Of a DNA stretch of 64,000 bases, positions 11,019 to 54,219 are shown piece by piece. How positions within the stretch are numbered: the stretch's first letter is position 1; every line of letters begins with the position of its first letter. Below the pieces are notes generated by a model that was given only the letters and a program-made list of their open reading frames with translations, was not told the DNA's origin and did no database searches. Source of the DNA: Pseudomonadota bacterium. GTDB taxonomy: Bacteria > Desulfobacterota > Binatia > Binatales > Binataceae. Made by a program: the position numbers and the translations under genes. Location: NCBI GenBank assembly GCA_021323675.1, contig JAJPKP010000070.1:147887-211886 (forward strand). Reading direction: 5' to 3'.

Positions 11019-14000
11019 CGCATCGCGCGCAGCTTGCGCAAGTCCTTAAGCCGCCCCTCGGGCTTGATCGAGGCTCGCCTTTCTTCGTACGGACCGCATA
11101 CGCGGCGATAGTCGCACCACTGGCACTCGCCCGCCTCGGGGGCGGCCGGAAAAAAGCCCGATGTGAGGGCGGCCGAAAGAATCGACGCGAAATCACGCAG
11201 CGAGGCCCGTGATTCTTCGTCGATCGTTACAATTCGGTCCTCGTATCCGCCCGCCGCGGTGCAGTAGTAAAGCCGGCCGGCCTCGACCGGTGCGCCCAAC
11301 ATCTGTTCCGCGGCGAGCGCATAGATGACGGGCTGGAGAATCTTGCCGCCGCCGATTACGAAGCTCTTGTCGGCGCGCACCTTGCCAGTTTTATGGTCTG
11401 TCACGCGCAGCGCATGGCCCGGCGCGCTCTCCACCAGATCGATTGAGCCGCGAACCTTGAGCCCATCGAGCGCAATCGGCTGCGCCGAGCTTGCCGGGTC
11501 CGCCTGATCGCGATCCGGCAGGCCGAAAGCCAACTCGAAACGTTCGGGTTTCCATCGCGCGGGATCTTCGGCGGCTCGGCGGAGCCATTCACGCAGGTCG
11601 GCGCGAATCTCTTCCACGCCGTCGAGCCATACGCGTTCGATCGCGGGCGCCAGCTCTTCGCGCCATTTCGTCGCGACCAGGTCGAGTTTTTCGTCAAGAA
11701 CTTTTTCGCCGCGCGCCAGCGTGTGAGCATCGAGCGGCAGAAGTCCGGCCGCGCGCAGGGCGCATAGAACTTCATACTGCACTTCGTGGAACATTCCGCC
11801 GCGGGTCAGGGGATCGATCATCTCGATCGCCTCGGGTTCCTCGCGCGGCTCGAGACGATGGATGGCCTGGAGCAGGAATCGATACGGACATGCGCCGAAA
11901 TGCTGCAGCGCGGTTGGCGAATAGGATCGCGCGGAGAGCTGATGGCGTTCCAGGACCGCGAGCGTAGGGGCCTCCGGGTCGACCAGCCCGTCTGCCGGCG
12001 TCCATCGCTTGAGCCATCGGCGCGCCCGGGCGCGCAGCGCTCGTCCCAGGTATTCGTTCGCATCCAGCAGGTAGCGAGCGGCGCCGCGAGTGGTTTCCGG
12101 GTCGGCATCGACCACCTTTTCCAGCACCGCAAGATCGAATTCGGCCTCGTCGATAGCGTCTTCCGGCGATGCCGGCGCGGGCCATCCCAGCCGGATTGCC
12201 TGCTCGCACGCGGCGCGGCGAGCAAGCTCGTCGAAGCCGGGGAGCCGCCCTTCGGCGGCGCGCAGGATTTCGAGCGCATAGAAGGAGGGCACGCGCGGGC
12301 GGCCTTGATCGAGGTCGATGCGGGGATAGGAAAACATCACGCGCCGCTCCGCCGCTCCCGCGGCAATTCGCAGCGCCAGCCGCTCCGCTGACACCCGATT
12401 TTCGGTGCGCTTCAAGGCGGCGCTCACCGCGGAGCGCGCGGCGTCGGGCAGGATGGGGTCTTCGATGAGCTTTTGCGGAAACACCCGCTCGGCAAGGCCG
12501 GGGACGATCACGACCTCGAATGACAATCCGCGCGCGCGATGCGGTGGCGCCACCATCACCGCTCCGTATCGTCGCGGCTCGGGCGGGTCTTCCAGGCGCG
12601 AGAGCCGCTCCGCCAGCACCATCCGCACCTCGTCGAGACCGACCGGGCCTACCGGGGCCATCGGCTCGAGCTCGGCCAGAGTCGCGAGGACGGCTGCGCG
12701 ATCGCGAATGGCGCGGGCGACAATGCCGCGCAGGTGATGAAGCCATTCTCCCCACGAGGCGCTGGCCGGCAGAGCGGCCAGCATCGCGATATGTTCCAGT
12801 GCCACGCGCCTCAGGTCCTGAAGGTCGGCGAGTTGGCGTTCAAGCGCCTCGATGCCTTCCTTCTTTTCCAGCGCCTCGCGGCGGCGGCGCAACTCGTTCT
12901 CGAGGCCATCAAGGCGCCGTTTCCATCTGTCCGCGCTGCCGATGACCGCCGCATCGACGATAATCTTCTCCCATCGCCATGGCGCGCGGACCGGGCGCTC
13001 CGCCGCTTCCAGATCATCGCCGGCAGCGGCGTCTTCTTTTGTTTCGAGGTCAGGAGCAAGGCTCAACGCCAGCAATTCATCCGGGGTATGAATTCCGTCC
13101 GGCTCCGCGGAAGATTCTTCCATCGGCACTTGCGCGAGAGAGAGATATTCGGAGTAGCGGCGCGCGGACAGGTCTTCGGCTTTGCACGCAAGCAGGGCGA
13201 GCAGCGCGCGGCCCCCGGGCCGCGGACGGCGCGCTTCACGCGAAAAATGCGCGGGAATTTTGGCGCGCGCAAGCGCCTCCTGCAGATAGGGAACGTAGCG
13301 AACCGGATCGCGGAGCAGCACGGCAATTCGATCGAAACGGACGCCGGCGGCGGCTTCGCGCAAAATCTTGCGCGCGATTTCCACGCATTCGTGCATCTCG
13401 CCCGGCGCGGAAGTTACCGTCACCGTTTCATCCAGCGGCCGCTCGGGCGGGTTGGTATCGGAGAACAGATGACGCTGCAGGGAATCAAGCGAAGTCTCGT
13501 CCGCCGCATCCCTGCGGTTCAAGTCCTCGATCGCGACCCCCAGCGCTCGCGACAGCATGCCGGCGGTGCGTTCATCTCCCGTCGGCACAGTTGCCATGAA
13601 ACTCGGCGCGTGTCCGGCCAGAGCCGCGGCCAGTTCGCATTCGCGAGCCGTCTCGACCGGAACGTCCAGCAAAAGTGTGGGAATGCCGACGAAACGCGAT
13701 CCGGCGCGGGCGGCTTCCACGGCGATCGCCAGCATCCCGGCCCGATCGATCAGGCGCGCCGCGGCCAGTTCCTCGTTGAATCGCTCCAGCAGGGCGGCCA
13801 GCTCCGTTCCCGCTTCGCCGGTTTGCCCGAGTGCGGCCGCGTCCACGCCTTCGAGCCGCAACTCGGCGATGGTGCGAGCGAGGGCATCGGCAAACCCCGG
13901 ACGATCGACTACCGGAGCGAAGTGCTTCAGCCTGTTCAGCGGCGTGAGATGGAAAACGGCGCGCGCCGCGATGGCCTGGGCAGCGAGACCGGTTGCGGGC

Positions 14001-22018: not shown

Positions 22019-22405
22019 CTATGAGCGCTCATAGATTCCGCGCGACTTGCGCTTGGCGAGACCCGCGTCTATCCATCGCGTTATCGCGGCAAAGATTTCC
22101 GAGGGACGTTTGTCCTTCAGCCCGCGGACCTTGCGTACATCTGACGCGGTGAACTGCTTGGGCATCTGCTTCAACACATTGCGCCAGTTGATACGTCCTT
22201 TTCCAACTCGTCCGGCTTCCGGCGCGGGCGCCGCTTCTCGGGACCCGCCGAGTAGACTACTTAGCCGAGCCTCTTCCTGCTTGAGCCGGCTGAGCTCACT
22301 TTCCTTGGCACGAATCTGTTCTCTCAAATTGGCAAGTACACTGCGAGCCTGACGCTGGATGCGCGCGAAAGCTGAAGTTACTCCGCCGAGACTGGCACGT
22401 GGCAT
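22019..22405 (-). CDS. Hypothetical coiled-coil protein of 128 aa
   Basis: It has an ATG start, and its codon usage is consistent with a real gene. The central heptad region is LREQIRAKESELSRLKQEEARLSSLL. Confidence 0.45.
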   Translation of the reverse strand: MPRASLGGVTSAFARIQRQARSVLANLREQIRAKESELSRLKQEEARLSSLLGGSREAAPAPEAGRVGKGRINWRNVLKQMPKQFTASDVRKVRGLKDKRPSEIFAAITRWIDAGLAKRKSRGIYERS

Positions 22406-23121
22406 TCAATTGACTCCTCATTCAGATCGAAAAACAAGATTCAACCTATATAATCTGTATCTTCATCACAAGCGCGATCTGGAATGAGATAAATTGAATA
22501 GCGGCGATGGCTCGATCTGAGATTGAACATCTCCACACATTAATTATTCGCTTACGCGATCATGCACGCCAAAACCGAACCCAGGCGGTTTTTCGATTGG
22601 CTTCGCGATGCAAATCGCTGAAAAGAGAAGAGCAGCTTTCCGGGGGCGATTTCCAGCGGAAGGATTCAGGCAATACCATCGCGCGATCGAGTGGGCGAAA
22701 AGGATGCAGGGGTGAAGCGCGGCGGGATTTGGTCGGCGCGCGGAGCGAGCGGGCGAGGGCGGTGACTCCGTACAAAATAAAACTTTGTTTCTTTTTGGCG
22801 TCGCCTTTAAGGCGGATTTGGCCGTTTTGGTTCGGTTACTTTCGCGTCTTTCGCTTCAAATTGGGGGCTGGAGTCCTAAATTTGCTCCTTTCCTGTGGCC
22901 ACTATCAACTCACAGTCAATGAACCCCCAAATTGCCGTCCGATTATGCCTGTATTTATCTCGATCACGATGGTATAAAAGAGTCAACTTTCGTAAGGTGC
23001 GCGCCGTCGACGTCTTTGTCCCACCGATCGGTCAAACGACACAATTTCCGTATTCGCGATAACCGGAAAGTGCGCGGGCGCTCGTGGGGCCAAGAATCTG
23101 GGGGGCGCCGGGGAGAAGGTA
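22406..23121. promoter_or_regulatory. A ~716-bp divergent non-coding region of lower GC; a probable promoter plus a long 5' leader for the RRM-protein gene
   Basis: The region has no credible ORF. The only candidate, 22507..22977, is low-complexity. It contains AT-rich stretches (TATATAATCTGTATCTTCA, TTAATTATTCGCTTACG, AAAATAAAACTTTGTTTCTTTTT) that are unusual for this genome. Confidence 0.4.
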
Positions 23122-43573: not shown

Positions 43574-45829
43574 CTAGCTGGCGACCGTCTCTATTCGCGC
43601 CGCAACATGCTTATGGAACGGAGTGCCGGCGAACCAGTCACGATCTTCCGTGGCAGTCAGCTCATTGGGCGCAACGCCGCTCTGAAATTCCTGCCCTTCG
43701 CGATCGGGGTACCAGAGCCCGGTTCCGTTAGGCAGCGCGACGTGACCGGGCAGCATCGTGTCGCTCAACTCGACGACGGCCTCAGCGGTGCCGCGCTTCG
43801 TGATCACGCGCACGCGTCCTCCCGTTCGTACTCCGAGCCGCGAGCCATCCTCGGGATTCATCCACAGCGAGCCGTGCGGATCTTTTGGCCGCCATTTGGG
43901 GTCACGAATGATCGTGTTGGCGGTCGAAGAGCGCCTCTGTCCCGCGGACAGCACAAACGGAAATTCCGGATCGGCGGCGGGTTGCTCGTCGCGAAGCGAC
44001 CGAAGCTCGGGAATGAGCTCGGGGATAGTGAAGTCGATGCGACCGCGATGAATTCGGCGCCAGGTCTCCCCATAGGGATCGACGCTGACTACCACTCCGG
44101 AAGGATTTTTCAGAATCGCGTCGAACAGCGCCTCGCCAAGCGCCGGACCCTCGCCGCTGAAACCGGCTCGCCGCACCGAATCGGCATAGCGTCGCGCGAA
44201 TTCCTGCGCGATGCCCCATACTGACGCGCCGTTCTGGTAGGCGGCGCCCAGGACGGGCCCGAGCGTTTCGTAGAGCAGCACGGTCATTACCGCGCCGAGG
44301 CGCGGACGTTCAGAGAGTACACGCTGCAGCTCGAGCGCATATGCCAGCCGGCCCTTGGCCGCCGCCGCATGCAGCGGCGCGACGTCATCGTCGGTCATCG
44401 CGCCAAGAGCGCGGACCAGGCGGCGATGGATTTCGCCTTCAGGTAGCGTTCCGGGCAACGGCTCGAGAATCGGCGCGCGGAGCGTGAACGAGTTGGCGAA
44501 ATCGGTGCCGGTGTCGAATCCCGAGCCGAAAAAGGTCGCCTCGGATTTCTCGTATTGGGAGCAGGCGGGCAGCACGTAGTGTGCCTCGCGCGCCGTCTCC
44601 GTCATCGCAACGTCGATGACAACGACAAATTCCAGGGCGCGCAGCGCCTCGCGCATCCGCGCGCTGTCGGCCACCGAATGGGCGGGATTCTCGCTTTCGA
44701 TCAGCATCGCCCGAAAACGCCTGGGATGGTCGGTCAGAATCTCGTCGGGTATCACATTGGCCGGAATCAGATTGCCGATAATGCGATGGCCCCCGACCGG
44801 GCTGGTCCGGTCCGAAAGCGCCCCGCTGAACATCCCGGTCAGACTGGTTGCGGCATTCATCGCGCCGCGCTTGCCGACATTTCCGGTCAACGCGTAAAGC
44901 AGCTTCTCGAGATATGAATTGAGCGTGCTGTGAGGCGCCTGCTCAATCCCCAGATCCTCGAAGAACGACACGCTCGATGCGCGCGCGATCCGGTGCACCA
45001 CGTTGCGTACCAGGCTCTCGCTGACCCCGGCGCGTGCGCAATAGTCGGCGATCGGAACTTCACTCAACGCGGCGAGGATTTCGGAACTGTTTTCGCCGTG
45101 ATCGCGAATGAAGGCGCGATCGACCAGGTCTTCCTGCACCAGGACACCCAGCATCGCGGCCAGACAGAAGGCGTCGGTGCCCGGCCGCACCCGCAAATGA
45201 TAGTCCGCCATCTCCGCCGTCTCGGTGCGGCGCGGATCGATTACAACCAGGGCGCGATTGGGGTCCGCGGCAAGATCGCGCAGAATGGGGCGGGCTCGCT
45301 GAAAACCGTGCGACTGCCACGGATTCTTCCCCACGAATACCGCGACCTCGGCATGCTCAAAGCCCGCGCGCACTGCGGTTCCAAACATCCGGTGTTCGAC
45401 CCAGAACTCGCCGGTTTTTTCCTGCGCGAGCGCATTCGAGCTGTAAACGCATCCCAGCGCCCGCCGGGTCGAGGCTCCGTAGCTTCCCACCAGATGATTT
45501 CCCTGGCCGCCACCGCCGTAATAGAAAATGCTCTCCCCGCCCCATTTGTCGCGGACCTTGAGGAATCCCGCGGCGACTTCGCGGATCGCCGTGTCCCAAT
45601 CAATCTCCTCGAACGTGCCGTCCGCCCTTCGGCGCATCGGCGCAGTCAGGCGATCGCGCCCGTTCTGATAGAAGTCGATTCGTTGCGCCTTTTCGCAAGC
45701 GTAGCCGCGAGAAGCGACGTGGGCGCGGTCTCCGCGCACGCGCGCGATGCGGCGGCCGTCGACCTTCACTTCGATTCCGCAGTTGACCGAACAGAGGATG
45801 CACGCGGTCTTGAGCCATTCGTCAGCCAT
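43574..45829 (-). CDS. Molybdopterin (bis-MGD) oxidoreductase, cytoplasmic, with an N-terminal 4Fe-4S site; assimilatory nitrate reductase (NarB/NasA)-like
   Basis: It has CILCSVNCG (C-x2-C-x3-C) plus RGYACEKA, and no Tat signal. The protein is about 751 aa with MGD-binding domains. The nitrate-reductase assignment is an inference from its size and from the neighbouring nitrate-reductase-associated-like gene. Confidence 0.8.
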   Translation of the reverse strand: MADEWLKTACILCSVNCGIEVKVDGRRIARVRGDRAHVASRGYACEKAQRIDFYQNGRDRLTAPMRRRADGTFEEIDWDTAIREVAAGFLKVRDKWGGESIFYYGGGGQGNHLVGSYGASTRRALGCVYSSNALAQEKTGEFWVEHRMFGTAVRAGFEHAEVAVFVGKNPWQSHGFQRARPILRDLAADPNRALVVIDPRRTETAEMADYHLRVRPGTDAFCLAAMLGVLVQEDLVDRAFIRDHGENSSEILAALSEVPIADYCARAGVSESLVRNVVHRIARASSVSFFEDLGIEQAPHSTLNSYLEKLLYALTGNVGKRGAMNAATSLTGMFSGALSDRTSPVGGHRIIGNLIPANVIPDEILTDHPRRFRAMLIESENPAHSVADSARMREALRALEFVVVIDVAMTETAREAHYVLPACSQYEKSEATFFGSGFDTGTDFANSFTLRAPILEPLPGTLPEGEIHRRLVRALGAMTDDDVAPLHAAAAKGRLAYALELQRVLSERPRLGAVMTVLLYETLGPVLGAAYQNGASVWGIAQEFARRYADSVRRAGFSGEGPALGEALFDAILKNPSGVVVSVDPYGETWRRIHRGRIDFTIPELIPELRSLRDEQPAADPEFPFVLSAGQRRSSTANTIIRDPKWRPKDPHGSLWMNPEDGSRLGVRTGGRVRVITKRGTAEAVVELSDTMLPGHVALPNGTGLWYPDREGQEFQSGVAPNELTATEDRDWFAGTPFHKHVAARIETVAS

Positions 45830-45962
45830 GATGCTTCTCCCGACGAGCGGGCCGGCGACCGGCCGAGTGTTGTTGACTAAGTTCTATTTTGGAACTTACT
45901 ATTGAGTCAAGGCTTGTCTGAGCTGCGGGGATTTCGGCTTGCGCTGGTCGGAAATAAGCGAG

Positions 45963-46436
45963 ATGAAATGTTCGGTTGCCCGGACCCTTTCGGTCATCGG
46001 CGACCGCTGGACGATGCTGATTGTGCGCGATGCGTTCCTCGGCAAGCGCCGGTTTGCGGACTTTCAGGATGACCTGGGCATGACGCGCCATCGCCTGTCG
46101 GCGCGGCTGGGCAAGCTTATCGACGAAGGCATTCTGATGCGCGTGCGATACCAGGATCGGCCGCCGCGATTTGAATATCGGCTGACCGAGAAGGGCATCG
46201 ACCTTTATCCGGTGATCGTGGCGATGCTGCGATGGGGCGACCGATGGATGGCGGGCGCGGACGGCCCGCCCATCGAGCTCGTGCACAAAAATTGCGGAAA
46301 GCACGTAATGCCGGCGCTTACCTGTCCAGCGTGCAAAGAGGAAGTGAATGCACGTACGATGTCTGCACGGCCCGGGCCAGGCTTGAGAAGGCGATCGCAT
46401 CCGCCTGTCGCCCGGATTAGTTCACGCAAGGAGTAG
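45963..46436 (+). CDS. HxlR-family winged-helix transcriptional regulator with a Cys-containing C-terminal extension
   Basis: CSVARTLSVIGDRWTMLIVRDAF...RFEYRLTEKG is the HxlR signature. The C-terminus carries C-x9-C-x2-C. The ATG at 45963 lies inside a TTG-initiated track ORF. It is divergent from the molybdoenzyme gene. Confidence 0.7.
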   Translation: MKCSVARTLSVIGDRWTMLIVRDAFLGKRRFADFQDDLGMTRHRLSARLGKLIDEGILMRVRYQDRPPRFEYRLTEKGIDLYPVIVAMLRWGDRWMAGADGPPIELVHKNCGKHVMPALTCPACKEEVNARTMSARPGPGLRRRSHPPVARISSRKE

Positions 46437-46445
46437 AGCGCAGTC

Positions 46446-46895
46446 ATGATTCGCCAGTTTCAGTTCGAGGCGGAGATTTACCAGTCGCTGGCCTGCCTGC
46501 CGATGCAGGCGCGGCGCAAACTCGACGCGATCGGGGTCAAGATCGGGCTCGCCCAATGGCAGCAGCTCGGGCGCGGCGAGCGGCTCATGATCTGCCATGC
46601 GCCGGCAAACTCGCCGGAAGAACGCGCCGCGCTCAAGCTGTTCATCGAGGAGGCAACGATGGCGCGCGCGGGCAGCCCTCCAAAAGAGCTGCCGGAAGAA
46701 AAGCGGCGGGTGGCGATTCCGCCGAAATCGCCGCCGGATCGGCTCGTCGCGCACGCGCGCCGGTTCGGCACCGAATTGACGCAGGAGAAATGGGATCGGC
46801 TCGACGACGACGAACGCTACGCGCTGGTGAAGCTCGGCGACGTCGAGCGGCCGAGCCACAACCTGCCATCGGCGCTCAAGGAATTCTTCGCGTAG
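46446..46895 (+). CDS. Small protein resembling the nitrate-reductase-associated protein family (from recall), otherwise hypothetical
   Basis: The N-terminal FQFEAEIYQSLACLPMQARRKLD matches my memory of the family found next to nasA-type genes. The assignment is from recall, not from a database check. Confidence 0.45.
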   Translation: MIRQFQFEAEIYQSLACLPMQARRKLDAIGVKIGLAQWQQLGRGERLMICHAPANSPEERAALKLFIEEATMARAGSPPKELPEEKRRVAIPPKSPPDRLVAHARRFGTELTQEKWDRLDDDERYALVKLGDVERPSHNLPSALKEFFA

Positions 46896-46931: not shown

Positions 46932-48140
46932 CTATTTGATCTCACGCGGATGCAAAACTCCCGCCTGCTTCAGGCGTTCGATCGATTCTTTTGAATAGCC
47001 GAGCTCGGCGAGGATGGGTTCGTTGTGCTCGCCGAGCGCAGGCGCCATCGTTCGCACGTTCGCCGGCGTGCGATCGAAGCGGGCCGCGGGACGCGGCAGG
47101 CGTATGCGGCCGAGGTGCTCGGTATCGTGTTCTTGCAGGATTCCGCTTTCGCGCACCTGCGGATCCTGAAGAAGCTCGATACGCCGGCGGACCGGTGCGG
47201 AAGGAACGTCGTTGGCCAAAAGCCGCGGCAGGATTTCATCCGCCCTCCACTTTTCCAGCTCGGCGGACATGATTTCGCGCCGCGCAACCGCGTTGATGGT
47301 GCGGTCGCGCGCGGTCTTGAAACGCGGATCGTTGATCAAGTCCTCGCGCCCAAACGCCCGGCACATCCCCGTCCATTCTTCATCCGAAAGCGCGCCGGCG
47401 GTCACGTATCGGTCCTGCGTGGCGAAGATCAGGTCGGGCCCGACTTCGCCATCGGATGGGTCGCGCTCCTCGCCGACAAACGTGAGACTCGGCATCGCCT
47501 CCGGCCATAGGTAGGAGATCATCGCGTCGAGCATCGCGATGCGCACGTGCTGGCCTTCTCCGGTGCGCTGCCGATGGAAGAGCGCGGCGGTTATCGCCTG
47601 CGCGGTGGTGAGCGCGGTCGTGTAGTCGGCGATGATAGTACGGACCATCCGCGGGCGCCCCGTATCGCGATCGCGCTGCACATCGGCAAGTCCCGAAAGC
47701 GCCTGGATCACGGGATCGTAGGCGCGCTGCCCGGAATACGGGCCGCGTTCGCCGAAGCCGCTGACCGACACATATATGATGTCGGGGCGAATTTCGCGGA
47801 CGGTATCTTCGCCCAGCCCCAGACGTTCGGGAGCGCCGGCGCGGAAGTTATGCACCAGGACATCCGCCGCGGCAACGAGCCTGCCAAGGATCGCTCGGCC
47901 TTCGGCGGTTTTGAGATCGAGCGCGATCGACCGCTTGTTGCGATTGCTTGCTAGAAACGATGGGTTCATGCCGCGGCGGCCGCGCGCCAGCCGGCGCATC
48001 AGGTCGCCTTCGGGGTTCTCGACCTTGATAACGTCCGCACCCTGATCGGCGAGCATCATGGTGGCGACCGGCCCGGCCACCATCGTGCTCAGGTCTAGAA
48101 CCCGCACGCCTTTGAGAGGTCCGTGGTTGTCGCTGTTCAC
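46932..48140 (-). CDS. CoA-transferase of family III (CaiB/BaiF)
   Basis: The N-terminal Rossmann-like motif is GVRVLDLSTMVAGPVATMMLADQGADVIKVE. It has a GTG start. Confidence 0.85.
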   Translation of the reverse strand: MNSDNHGPLKGVRVLDLSTMVAGPVATMMLADQGADVIKVENPEGDLMRRLARGRRGMNPSFLASNRNKRSIALDLKTAEGRAILGRLVAAADVLVHNFRAGAPERLGLGEDTVREIRPDIIYVSVSGFGERGPYSGQRAYDPVIQALSGLADVQRDRDTGRPRMVRTIIADYTTALTTAQAITAALFHRQRTGEGQHVRIAMLDAMISYLWPEAMPSLTFVGEERDPSDGEVGPDLIFATQDRYVTAGALSDEEWTGMCRAFGREDLINDPRFKTARDRTINAVARREIMSAELEKWRADEILPRLLANDVPSAPVRRRIELLQDPQVRESGILQEHDTEHLGRIRLPRPAARFDRTPANVRTMAPALGEHNEPILAELGYSKESIERLKQAGVLHPREIK

Positions 48141-48959: not shown

Positions 48960-49553
48960 ATGCGAGTATCCAGGGAACAGGTCTCCGAAAATCGCCGCCA
49001 GATCCTCTCCGCCGCCGCGCGGCTGTTTCGCGAGAACGGGATCGCCGCCACCGGCGTTGACGAAATTGCCGAGCGCGCCGGACTGACCCACGGCAGCGTC
49101 TACAGCCAGTTCGGCTCCAAGGATGCCGTAGCGGCGGCGGCAATCCTGTTCGCCTCCGCCGGGTCCCTGCGAAGATGGGGGCGCGCCGCCGAGCGCGCGC
49201 CGGGAAAGCCGGCCTTGCGCGAGATCGTCAAAGGCTACCTGTCCCGCGATCATCGCGATGCTCCCGGCCACGGATGCGTGCTCGCCGCGCTCGGTCCGGA
49301 CGCCGGCCGTGGGCCGCGAGCGACCCGCAATGCGTTTACCCGGGCGTTGCGGGGGGCGGTGGATTTCATCGCGGGCCTCATGCCCGATCGTGTCGCGTCG
49401 AAGCGCGAGGAGCGGGCCCTCGCCCTGTTCTCGCAAATGGTCGGAGCATTGATTCTGGCCCGCGCCGTCGATGACGAAGCTCTGTCGGATCGAATCCTGC
49501 GCGCGTCGTCCCGGCACGCGATCGCCGTCGCCGATCATTCTCCGAATCGATAG
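48960..49553 (+). CDS. TetR/AcrR-family transcriptional regulator
   Basis: The N-terminal HTH is GIAATGVDEIAERAGLTHGSVYSQFGSKD. The ATG at 48960 lies inside a long spurious upstream extension. Confidence 0.8.
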   Translation: MRVSREQVSENRRQILSAAARLFRENGIAATGVDEIAERAGLTHGSVYSQFGSKDAVAAAAILFASAGSLRRWGRAAERAPGKPALREIVKGYLSRDHRDAPGHGCVLAALGPDAGRGPRATRNAFTRALRGAVDFIAGLMPDRVASKREERALALFSQMVGALILARAVDDEALSDRILRASSRHAIAVADHSPNR

Positions 49554-49563
49554 GAGAGGTCTT

Positions 49564-50307
49564 GTGGAATTCAGGAACGCAACCGCCGTGGTCATTGGCG
49601 CCGGGGACTATATCGGCGCCGCAATCGCCAGGAAATTCGCCGCCGAAGGATTCACTGTCTTTGCCGGCAGGCGGCAGGGCAACAAGCTCGCGCCGCTGGT
49701 CTCCGAAGTCGAGGCGGCCGGCGGAAGGATCTTCGCGCGCGGGCTCGATGCGCGCAAGGAAGAGGACATCACCGCGTTTCTGAACGAAGCTGAGCGGCAG
49801 GCGCCGCTTGAAGTGTGCATCTTCAACATCGGCGCCAACGTCAATTTTCCGCTGGTGGAAACCACCGAACGGGTGTTTCGCAAGGTCTGGGAGATGGCCT
49901 GTTACTCCGGCTTTCTTGCGGGGCGCGAGGCCGCCCGCCTGATGCTGCCGCGCGGCCGCGGCGCGATCTTTTTCACCGGCGCGACTGCGAGCCTCCGCGG
50001 CGGCATCGGATACGCGGCGTTTGCCGCGGCGAAATTCGGCCTGCGCGCGGTCGCGCAGAGCGCGGCGCGCGAACTCGGGCCCAGGAATATCCACGTCGCG
50101 CATCTGATCATCGATGCCGGGGTGGATACCGCCTGGGTCCGCGACCGCATCCGGGAACGCGAGGGCGAGGACGCGATCAAAAATCTGGACCTGACCCGCC
50201 TGATGACGCCGGCTTCGGTGGCCGAGACGTATTGGCAGCTCTATCGGCAGCCGCGCGACGCGTGGACCTTCGAGATGGAGATTCGTCCATTCCGCGAAAA
50301 ATGGTGA
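49564..50307 (+). CDS. Short-chain dehydrogenase/reductase (SDR)
   Basis: It has the VIGAGDYIG Rossmann motif and the catalytic Y-x3-K (YAAFAAAK). The GTG at 49564 follows a GGAGAGG RBS. Confidence 0.75.
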   Translation: MEFRNATAVVIGAGDYIGAAIARKFAAEGFTVFAGRRQGNKLAPLVSEVEAAGGRIFARGLDARKEEDITAFLNEAERQAPLEVCIFNIGANVNFPLVETTERVFRKVWEMACYSGFLAGREAARLMLPRGRGAIFFTGATASLRGGIGYAAFAAAKFGLRAVAQSAARELGPRNIHVAHLIIDAGVDTAWVRDRIREREGEDAIKNLDLTRLMTPASVAETYWQLYRQPRDAWTFEMEIRPFREKW

Positions 50308-50921
50308 GCCAAATGAAAACCGTGGAATTTCATTTCGACTTCGGCAGCCCCAACGCCTATCTGAGTCACCTGGTAATCCCCGAGATCGAGAAGCGCACCG
50401 GAGCCAAATTCGAGTATGTTCCCGTCCTGCTCGGCGGCGTCTTCAAGATGACCAACAACCGCTCGCCCGCGGAGACTCTGAGAGGCATCAAAAACAAGCC
50501 CGAGTACGAGCGCCTTGAGACGCAGCGCTTCATCAAGCGCCACGGCATCACGAAGTTTCAAAGCAACCCCTTCTTTCCGGTAAACACCCTGATGATCATG
50601 CGCGGCGCCATCGCCGCGAAATCGATGGGCATCTTCGATCGCTACATCGATGAGGTCTACCGCCATATGTGGGCCGAGCCAAAGAAGATGGACGATCCCG
50701 CCGTCGTTCGGAAGGTCCTGGAGGGCGCCGGATTCGATTCCGCGATCTTGTTCGAGTTGATTCAAACCCAGCCGGTCAAAGACGAGCTGATTCGCAACAC
50801 CGAGCGCTCGGTCGCGCGCGGCACTTTCGGTTCTCCCACTTTCTATGTCGATGAGGAGATCTTCTTTGGCAAGGACCGCCTGCGCGACGTCGAGGAGATG
50901 CTGGGCGGCCCGAACAAGTGA
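50301..50921 (+). CDS. 2-hydroxychromene-2-carboxylate isomerase / DsbA-like thioredoxin-fold protein
   Basis: VEFHFDFGSPNAYLSH matches the HCCA-isomerase family N-terminus, which has Ser in place of the DsbA Cys. The start is the ATG at 50301 or at 50313. Confidence 0.7.
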   Translation: MVSQMKTVEFHFDFGSPNAYLSHLVIPEIEKRTGAKFEYVPVLLGGVFKMTNNRSPAETLRGIKNKPEYERLETQRFIKRHGITKFQSNPFFPVNTLMIMRGAIAAKSMGIFDRYIDEVYRHMWAEPKKMDDPAVVRKVLEGAGFDSAILFELIQTQPVKDELIRNTERSVARGTFGSPTFYVDEEIFFGKDRLRDVEEMLGGPNK

Positions 50922-53013: not shown

Positions 53014-54219
53014 TCAGGCCCAGCGCGATCTGGGCCTGCTGCGCGATCGCGAACGATCCGAAGAAAAGAGCTTGACCGGCTTGGGCGCGGTGATCTGAAT
53101 CTTTTCGAATCCCTCGACGTGTTCGCGTTCGAGTTGCTCGCCGAGGACGCGCTCCAGGCGGGCCAGAGTGACGCGCTCTTCCGGAGTCACCAGGCTGATC
53201 GCTTCGCCCGACTTGCCCATCCGCGCCGTGCGGCCCACGCGATGGATGTAACTTTCGGTTTCCTCGGGAAGGTCGAAGTTGATCACGTGAGAGACATCGG
53301 GGATGTCCAGTCCGCGCGCGGCCAGGTCGGTTGCGACCATCACGCGAAACCGGCGCGCCCGGAACCCGGCCAGCGCGGCATTGCGTTGTCCCTGAGAGCG
53401 GTCGCCGTGAATCTGCACCGCGCGAATATGCGCATGCTGGAGCATCCGCGCGATCCGGTCCGCGCGGCTTTTGGTCCTCGTAAAGACGATCGCTCGTTCG
53501 ATTTCGGGCCGTTTGAGAATCTCGAGCAGCATCTTGCTCTTGTCTTCAAGCGCCACCGGGTAGATTGACTGCCGAACCGTGGACGGCGGCGCGGTTTTTT
53601 CCCCGATGGTGACGCGCGCGGGATTATGGAGGAACTCGCGCGCGAGCATCTCCGGCCCGGATGCCATCGTTGCCGAAAACATCATGGTCTGCCGATGCCG
53701 AGGCACCATCTTCATGATCCGCTTGAGCTGCGGCAGAAAGCCCATGTCGAGCAGGCGATCCGCCTCGTCGATGACGACGACTTCGATGCGGTCGAGCTTT
53801 ACGATGTGCCTTTCGAGGTAGTCGATGAGCCTGCCGGGGCATGCGACCAGAACCTGCGCACCCGAGCGAATTTCCTCGATCTGCCGCTTCTCCGATTCTC
53901 CTCCCATCACGACTGCGGCGCGCAGCCGCGTATGGCGCGCGAGCAGGGTGAACTCCCGCGCAACCTGGGTGGCCAATTCGCGGGTCGGAGTAATTATCAG
54001 GGCGGCCAGATGATCGCTGTGGCTGCGATGCAGGCGATCCAGCGTCGGCGCGAGAAATGCGCAGGTCTTGCCGCTGCCGGTTTCGGCGGTTGCTACCACA
54101 TCGCGCCCTTCCAGTGCGACCGGAATGGTCTCAGCCTGAACCGGTGTTGGCTGGTGATGTCCCCGATCGGAGAGAGCGCGCTGAATTTCGGGCGCGAGAT
54201 GAAATTCGGAAAAAAGCAA
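53014..54219 (-). CDS. DEAD-box ATP-dependent RNA helicase
   Basis: It has the Q motif, Walker A (AETGSGKT), DEAD (VIDEAD), SAT, and HRVGRTAR. It has an Arg/Ser-rich C-terminal tail. It has a TTG start. Confidence 0.9.
   Translation of the reverse strand: MLFSEFHLAPEIQRALSDRGHHQPTPVQAETIPVALEGRDVVATAETGSGKTCAFLAPTLDRLHRSHSDHLAALIITPTRELATQVAREFTLLARHTRLRAAVVMGGESEKRQIEEIRSGAQVLVACPGRLIDYLERHIVKLDRIEVVVIDEADRLLDMGFLPQLKRIMKMVPRHRQTMMFSATMASGPEMLAREFLHNPARVTIGEKTAPPSTVRQSIYPVALEDKSKMLLEILKRPEIERAIVFTRTKSRADRIARMLQHAHIRAVQIHGDRSQGQRNAALAGFRARRFRVMVATDLAARGLDIPDVSHVINFDLPEETESYIHRVGRTARMGKSGEAISLVTPEERVTLARLERVLGEQLEREHVEGFEKIQITAPKPVKLFSSDRSRSRSRPRSRWA

Follow-up and report, generated by a model that had tools for sequence, protein, structure and literature searches.

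Genes and palindrome at the locus

The DNA analysed here is a 64-kb stretch, referred to throughout as the window, in which the gene for a cytoplasmic Mo-bisPGD oxidoreductase of 751 residues diverges from that of an HxlR-family regulator (hxlR), the latter followed after 9 nt by a NarM-like gene with which it is probably co-transcribed (Table 1). An earlier, sequence-only reading had placed a candidate operator, an AT-rich nested palindrome, between the two divergent genes. Its assignment of the plus-strand gene to the HxlR family is confirmed by the Pfam match. Its description of the enzyme as NarB-like holds only as far as the Mo-bisPGD superfamily: the protein scores below every NCBIfam equivalog cut-off, including those for nitrate reductases and formate dehydrogenases (Fdh-alpha, the best, 223 against 666; NasC, 155.3 against 1100; haloarchaeal NasA, 122.8 against 1000), so the NarB label is only loosely right and the assignment is to the superfamily alone. 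Alignment with NapA to locate the Mo-ligand residue was unreliable around LGCVYSSNAL. The NarM-like gene is confined to the nearest relatives (loci L001, L002, L027 and L049) and is found here outside the cyanobacteria, beside a molybdoenzyme that is not NarB. In a cluster look-up none of the three proteins had a source-given name.

Translation of hxlR probably starts at a TTG codon (45939), eight codons upstream of the ATG chosen by gene callers (45963). The resulting N-terminal extension, MRWxEIxxM (45939-45965), is kept by the orthologues, whose DNA opens it with ATG or GTG, and the TTG is preceded by GGGGA. With this orthologue-supported start the intergenic spacer measures 109 bp, in line with the roughly 110 bp first given for it, but with the gene callers' ATG it measures 133 bp.

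Table 1. Features of the hxlR-molybdoenzyme region; coordinates are those of the window unless another locus is named.
Feature	Coordinates	Strand	Basis or remark
Mo-bisPGD oxidoreductase gene	43574-45829	-	PF04879, PF00384 and PF01568; N-terminal 4Fe-4S domain
GC-rich hairpin GGCCGGCGACCGGCC	45850-45864		Presumed 5' leader of the molybdoenzyme mRNA; terminator-like in a simple scan
Putative hxlR -35, TTGACT	45873-45878	+	Promoter scan; left arm of outer repeat; invariant in 10 orthologues
Extended inverted repeat, TAAGTTC-N7-GAACTTA	45878-45898 (arms 45878-45884 and 45892-45898)		Perfect 7-bp arms, 7-nt gap
Predicted operator core AGTTCTATTTTGGAACT	45880-45896		17 bp; 7-3-7 dyad AGTTCTA / TTT / TGGAACT, arms matching at 6 of 7 positions
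Candidate molybdoenzyme -10, TAGAAC	45881-45886	-	Inside operator; weak, without the final T; read by eye
Putative hxlR -10, TACTAT	45897-45902	+	Promoter scan; 18-nt -35/-10 spacer contains the operator
Putative molybdoenzyme -35, TTGACT	45905-45910	-	Right arm of outer repeat; predicted assignment
HxlR-family regulator gene	45939-46436	+	PF01638, 82.7 bits (cut-off 20.8), residues 11-97
NarM-like gene	46446-46895	+	PF09655, 119.8 bits (cut-off 25); TIGR02664, 101 (cut-off 110)
CoA-transferase III gene	46932-48140
TetR gene	48960-49553
SDR gene	49564-50307
DsbA-like gene	50313-50921
17-mer without hxlR, L156	4865-4900 of L156		Low-GC contig
17-mer without hxlR, L133	1470-1486 of L133		Low-GC contig
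17-mer without hxlR, L157	4882-4898 of L157		Low-GC contig

The palindrome lies within the 38-nt string TTGACTAAGTTCTATTTTGGAACTTACTATTGAGTCAA at 45873-45910, whose end had been put one base short, at 45909. It was originally portrayed as a 35% GC spacer in a 68% GC genome; the window measures 62.4% GC and the 133-bp spacer (45830-45962) 55%, but the 38-bp core is indeed AT-rich, at 29% GC. Just two places in the 64 kb have 38-mers at or below this value, the other being an AT-rich stretch of about 600 bp at 22400-23000. The perfect 7-bp repeat TAAGTTC-N7-GAACTTA is present exactly as described, and so is the outer TTGAC...GTCAA repeat, which actually extends to 6 bp (TTGACT/AGTCAA). The inner repeat is nested in the outer as claimed but the two are not concentric, and since their centres differ (45888 and 45891.5) they do not form one dyad.

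The predicted operator is the inner dyad only, which is better put as a 7-3-7 arrangement and is broader than the original repeat when read inward. The outermost positions of TAAGTTC-N7-GAACTTA differ between orthologues, and the 7-3-7 reading explains why the supposed spacer, TATTTTG, is invariant. Symmetry by itself carries little weight: the window has 115 perfect 7-bp inverted repeats with gaps of 3-12 nt, a density of about 0.24 per 133 bp, so the 7-bp repeat alone is not significant and owes its significance to being conserved. Three more AT-rich repeats of this kind were seen, AATTCAT-N7 at 13074, AAATGAA-N11 at 50311 (the SDR/DsbA junction) and GAATTTC-N11 at 54183.

Exact AGTTC-N7-GAACT occurs once in the window, at the operator core. 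A window-wide scan for further copies gave only two matches with one mismatch (6190 and 59785); each is GC-rich at its centre and has long ORFs running across it. Chance alone would give 1.05 such matches, and both were rejected as regulon members. No additional regulon member was found within the 64 kb. A literature search with the core sequence matched only unrelated plastome and pneumococcus papers, and one combining HxlR with molybdopterin found nothing relevant.

Conservation of the motif and its association with hxlR

A molybdoenzyme scan using one genome per species gave 80 loci, the closest of which (77-85% identity) come from Candidatus Binataceae/Binatus MAGs. Nine orthologous loci share a divergent hxlR, at 62-79% identity, and ten spacers were aligned: those of the window, L001, L002, L049, L018, L021, L022, L023 and L027, and that of L085, which was found through the regulator. 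The only invariant stretch across the ten is 45873-45911. Conservation in orthologous intergenic regions had been proposed as a check on the operator, and the outcome is strongly positive: mean pairwise identity is 90% in this block and 93% in the 17-mer, against 28% in the left flank and 20% in the right flank. Elsewhere in the spacer, the GC-rich hairpin GGCCGGCGACCGGCC shares only GGCCGGC, and only with the three nearest relatives; at the corresponding position L018 and L021 have a second copy of the dyad, GTTCCAAAATGGAAGT.

The same alignment bears on the outer repeat, whose two arms are more likely to be -35 hexamers facing each other than to belong to the operator. On the hxlR side TAnTAT is kept at a fixed distance in 9 of the 10 aligned spacers, with TAGTGT in L018, and on the molybdoenzyme side GTCAAG at the right arm is invariant in all ten. 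The candidate TAGAAC lies 17-18 nt from its -35 in all group A loci (18 nt in the window), and the promoter scan did not call it. All of these hexamers are putative, being consensus matches in a host phylum, Binatota, without mapped promoters. So placed, the dyad lies between the putative hxlR -35 and -10 and overlaps core promoter elements, with its centre 59 nt from the molybdoenzyme ATG. A -35/-10 spacer of 17-18 nt is taken up by the dyad not only in the window but also in L124, L129, L146, L149 and L157, in the last of which the 17-mer occupies a TTTACA-17-TAGGAT spacer of the molybdoenzyme promoter.

Across the 80 loci, exact AGTTC-N7-GAACT is present in 27, always within 200 nt upstream of the enzyme start and in one copy per locus (except at an artefactual contig end in L008), and it is absent from the other 570 kb of these loci. 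Positions 1-94 of the L008 contig are a long inverted duplication of promoter sequence (TAATCTGGTCAGTTCATCTATCGAACTACATAGTTCA...TGAACTATGTAGTTCGTTAGATGAACTGACCAGATTA), probably a fold-back assembly artefact. When up to two mismatches are allowed in the upstream 200 nt, the motif is found in 35 of the 40 loci with a nearby hxlR (either divergent and no more than 400 nt upstream, or no more than 500 nt downstream) and in none of the 32 that lack an hxlR homologue in the fetched stretch, all of which differ from it at three or more positions. Motif presence thus correlates with hxlR presence, the exceptions being three metagenome loci (L133, L156 and L157). Many of the related loci come from close relatives, so these counts do not represent independent events.

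Furthermore, the AGTTC/GAACT half-sites track the hxlR-molybdoenzyme pair through three gene orders. hxlR is divergent in the window, L001 and L085, and in L084 it precedes the molybdoenzyme gene on the same strand, with CAGTTCTGTTTTGGAACTG 4 nt before the hxlR start codon. In most Binatus genomes (L003-L017, L019, L020, L024-L026, L028, L030 and L053) the molybdoenzyme gene is instead followed, 33 nt further on, by an hxlR paralogue of 45-50% identity, and ATAGTTCATTCTCTTGTTGAACTATGTAGTTCGnTAGATGAACT stands upstream of the enzyme, with AGTTC-N11-GAACT and then AGTTC-N7-GAACT about 60 nt before the start; this site stops about 13 nt short of the ribosome-binding site. The sequence CATTCTCTTGTTGAACT is retained even in the Acidimicrobiia/Actinomycetes loci L033 and L037, although these have lost the left arm. 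The recognition helix of the downstream paralogues is PRAVLARRL, and these proteins lack the Cys motif of the window regulator (see below), yet are associated with the same half-sites, which weakens any simple helix-to-operator code. In a distant group from Myxococcota and others (L069, L070, L074 and L079), the hxlR near the molybdoenzyme is about 41-43% identical where full-length, has the recognition helix IAKNIL without the Cys motif, and is immediately divergent in L069, L074 and L079; the enzyme gene is preceded by a different dyad, GGTTGC-N5-GCAACC, which keeps to the GTTnC-N5-GnAAC frame. No recognisable dyad was found in L075 and L080, where an hxlR with another recognition helix lies upstream on the same strand.

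Beyond the molybdoenzyme loci, scanning metagenomes for the exact 17-mer gave about 16 loci in which it adjoins a homologue of hxlR (40-80% identity), of the molybdoenzyme (26-83%) or of both. In L103 (44% GC) two inverted copies stand 30 bp apart between divergent molybdoenzyme and hxlR genes. Six loci (L106, L110, L124, L129, L144 and L146) carry the 17-mer without a molybdoenzyme gene, and the genes across the site from hxlR, identified in all of these but L144, are SDR, DsbA-like and nitronate-monooxygenase (NMO) genes, the adjoining regulators being 47-67% identical to that of the window. In L106 and L124, SDR and DsbA-like homologues are part of the run of genes leading away from the site, with a CoA-transferase gene after the DsbA-like gene in L124. 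The window has its own relatives of these genes (CoA-transferase III 56%, SDR 80% and DsbA-like 59-62% identical to the L106/L124 genes); none has the 17-mer before it there, and the SDR and DsbA-like genes come after a TetR gene.

The same scan also gave many chance or coding matches in low-GC contigs. Several of these contigs come from aquatic metagenomes, and in L088, L096, L104, L123, L126, L127, L130, L131, L160, L164 and others the 17-mer appears as ATGAAGTTCTATTTTGGAACTAA (MKFYFGTN in translation, should a gene start there) and looks unrelated to the operator; the 17-mer by itself is therefore not diagnostic. The exact 17-mer also precedes molybdoenzyme homologues of 38-42% identity in L133, L156 and L157, with no hxlR in the fetched DNA, so that the binder there is either encoded elsewhere or a different protein. 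In L156 and L133 this homologue is preceded by a gene for a nasA-like nitrate reductase with a BFD domain and by mobA, and the L133 copy consists of the C-terminal domain only. Taken together, the operator reading is supported: nothing in the spacer is conserved except the block, whose half-sites follow the hxlR-molybdoenzyme pair, and the 17-mer recurs beside other hxlR genes.

The regulator and comparable systems

Counted from the TTG start, residue 11 of the regulator is a cysteine (Cys11) that lines up with the sensing Cys of YodB, HypR and HxlR, and this residue is invariant in 14 orthologues and 13 diverse homologues. All regulators that adjoin the exact 17-mer share the N-terminal Cys, a recognition helix of the form (T/S/P)RHxLxxRL and a C-terminal H-x2-C-x9-C-x2-C motif. 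The last of these (residues 116-132, window 46284-46334) is invariant in the subfamily, is missing from the solved structures 2f2e and 4gcv, the paralogue group and the distant group, and could be a metal or redox site. An AlphaFold model of the regulator has a winged helix-turn-helix core with pLDDT of 83-93 and a C-terminal domain at 53-73, too weak for His/Cys geometry.

Relatives in the PDB include HypR, HxlR and YodB (5hs7, E = 1.6e-8). The closest solved ones are long-form HxlR proteins, PA1607 (2f2e, E = 2.7e-27) and 4gcv (E = 1.3e-23); 4gcv aligns through the C-terminal extension of the window regulator and PA1607 part-way into it. Both lack the His/Cys motif, with ERDSGQPV and ERTSGRPV aligned to HKNCGKHV, and the PA1607 recognition helix, LAKNILAARL, differs from that of the window regulator. 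To our knowledge, no operator is known for either protein.

Thiol-switch repression of adjacent or divergent oxidoreductase genes is familiar from YodB, QsrR and QorR, which bind dyads in the target promoters and leave the DNA once the conserved N-terminal Cys is alkylated or oxidised. This is also the mechanism proposed below. Their targets are azoreductase, nitroreductase and quinone reductase genes, whereas here the target would be a Mo-bisPGD enzyme and elsewhere SDR, DsbA-like or NMO genes, and their operator sequences are not known to be related to that of the window. Bacillus subtilis HypR (YybR), a MarR/DUF24 (that is, HxlR-family) protein, protects a 7-2-7 repeat, GTATCAAAATTGATAC. 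The repeat is also found within the HypR promoter itself (+24 to +39), and the authors suggest that HypR probably represses its own transcription from there (PMC3351151). HypR resembles the window regulator in Pfam family, in its N-terminal Cys (redox-active in HypR) and in the AT-centred dyad (7-2-7 against 7-3-7). It differs in half-site sequence and in activating its target from -53 to -95, whereas the site described here overlaps both core promoters; it is also a short form, whereas the window regulator has a C-terminal extension of about 60 residues with H-x2-C-x9-C-x2-C. The neighbouring genes, meanwhile, recall cyanobacterial NarB/NarM in that a NarM-family gene stands beside a cytoplasmic Mo-bisPGD enzyme with an N-terminal Fe-S domain, but by equivalog scores the window enzyme is no orthologue of NasC or Fdh-alpha.

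Predicted regulation and its significance

The 17-bp near-palindrome is very probably the binding site of the adjacent HxlR-type regulator, and the Mo-bisPGD enzyme gene is a probable target. What the data show directly is the sequence, the way it is conserved and its repeated occurrence alongside hxlR; the promoter hexamers and repression combined with a thiol switch are inferred, as a model that we consider reasonably probable. A winged-helix HxlR dimer would bind AGTTCTATTTTGGAACT inside two fully overlapping divergent sigma-70-type promoters, filling the spacer between -35 TTGACT and -10 TACTAT on the hxlR(-narM-like) side and covering the putative -10 on the molybdoenzyme side. Since the operator lies within both promoters, one bound dimer would shut off both transcripts, giving autoregulation as well as target repression. 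Modification of the invariant N-terminal Cys by an oxidant or electrophile would then release the protein and induce both genes. Repression is favoured by the occluding positions of the site, which fills promoter spacers and, in the paralogue loci, abuts the ribosome-binding site. Counting against it, two well-studied members of the family, HxlR and HypR, are activators.

The same protein at the same site might therefore act as an activator or dual regulator, its modified form activating a weak molybdoenzyme promoter, in the manner of B. subtilis HxlR and HypR, while the protein represses its own gene, although we regard this as unlikely. The putative molybdoenzyme -10, TAGAAC, which was read by eye, is poor, as is typical of activator-dependent promoters, and this counts against simple repression. 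There is also the precedent of HypR, which activates hypO from a 7-2-7 box and, according to its authors, probably represses its own gene (PMC3351151). The HypR activating box, however, is well upstream, whereas the dyad here overlaps the core promoter, and the sites in the paralogue loci and in L157 are likewise in occluding positions. Nor do the 17-18-nt spacers fit activation from within the spacer, for which MerR-type regulators typically use 19-20 nt. That a different transcription factor, encoded elsewhere, binds the dyad, with the adjacency of hxlR incidental, is decidedly unlikely. The hxlR-free sites upstream of molybdoenzyme homologues in L133, L156 and L157 would suit such a factor, but hxlR is the sole gene common to the SDR/DsbA/NMO and molybdoenzyme contexts, and the motif is missing from every one of the 32 molybdoenzyme loci whose fetched stretch lacks an hxlR homologue.

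Conservation could in principle reflect the promoters only, two overlapping and divergent, with no regulator and with symmetry as a by-product: TTGACT, TAnTAT and the opposed TTGACT make up 18 of the 38 conserved bases. Promoter spacers are not normally conserved, but the invariant TTTTGGAA sits in just such a spacer; moreover, the same half-sites occur in other promoter settings (the paralogue loci and L084), where they either follow the promoter or sit against the start codon, and L103 has its two copies. This explanation is accordingly very improbable. Least credible is an RNA or DNA hairpin, such as a leader structure or terminator, and this reading was rejected. The 38-mer does fold, at -9.4 kcal/mol (z = -2.7), but that stability is modest and expected of any palindrome, and no U-tract follows. 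An Rfam scan of 45500-46300 at E <= 1 had nothing at the palindrome, its only hit being a chance symR match at 45691-45748. By the promoter assignment the dyad would lie upstream of both transcription starts, and arm changes in L021-L023 break pairs with no compensation.

The repressor model thus describes an element of the kind expected for an HxlR-family regulator, and its mechanism, a thiol-switch repressor on overlapping divergent promoters, is conventional. Less ordinary are the near-invariance of a 17-bp predicted operator across organisms of 40% to 64% GC, distantly related bacteria included, an uncharacterised long-form HxlR subfamily with a His/Cys motif, and an uncharacterised molybdoenzyme clade as its recurrent target. 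A bolder proposal, rather improbable at present, is that this subfamily (RHxL helix, Cys and His/Cys motif) spans phyla and uses one almost invariant 17-bp operator to control a shared response module, made up of a new clade of cytoplasmic Mo-bisPGD enzyme with NMO, SDR, DsbA-like and CoA-transferase genes, that could deal with nitro, nitronate or other nitrogen-oxide electrophiles. If true, the Mo enzyme, together with the NarM-like protein, could handle an N-oxyanion product.

The locus offers a testable regulator-operator-target triplet for a molybdoenzyme clade without an assigned substrate and a long-form HxlR subfamily without a known signal. Because the same 17 bases mark the regulon over so wide a range of base composition, the motif can serve to list genes under common control in metagenomes. 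Candidates to date encode the molybdoenzyme and NMO, SDR and DsbA-like proteins, and one locus adds a more distal CoA-transferase gene; such a list of co-regulated genes should aid guesses at both the inducer and the substrate of the enzyme.
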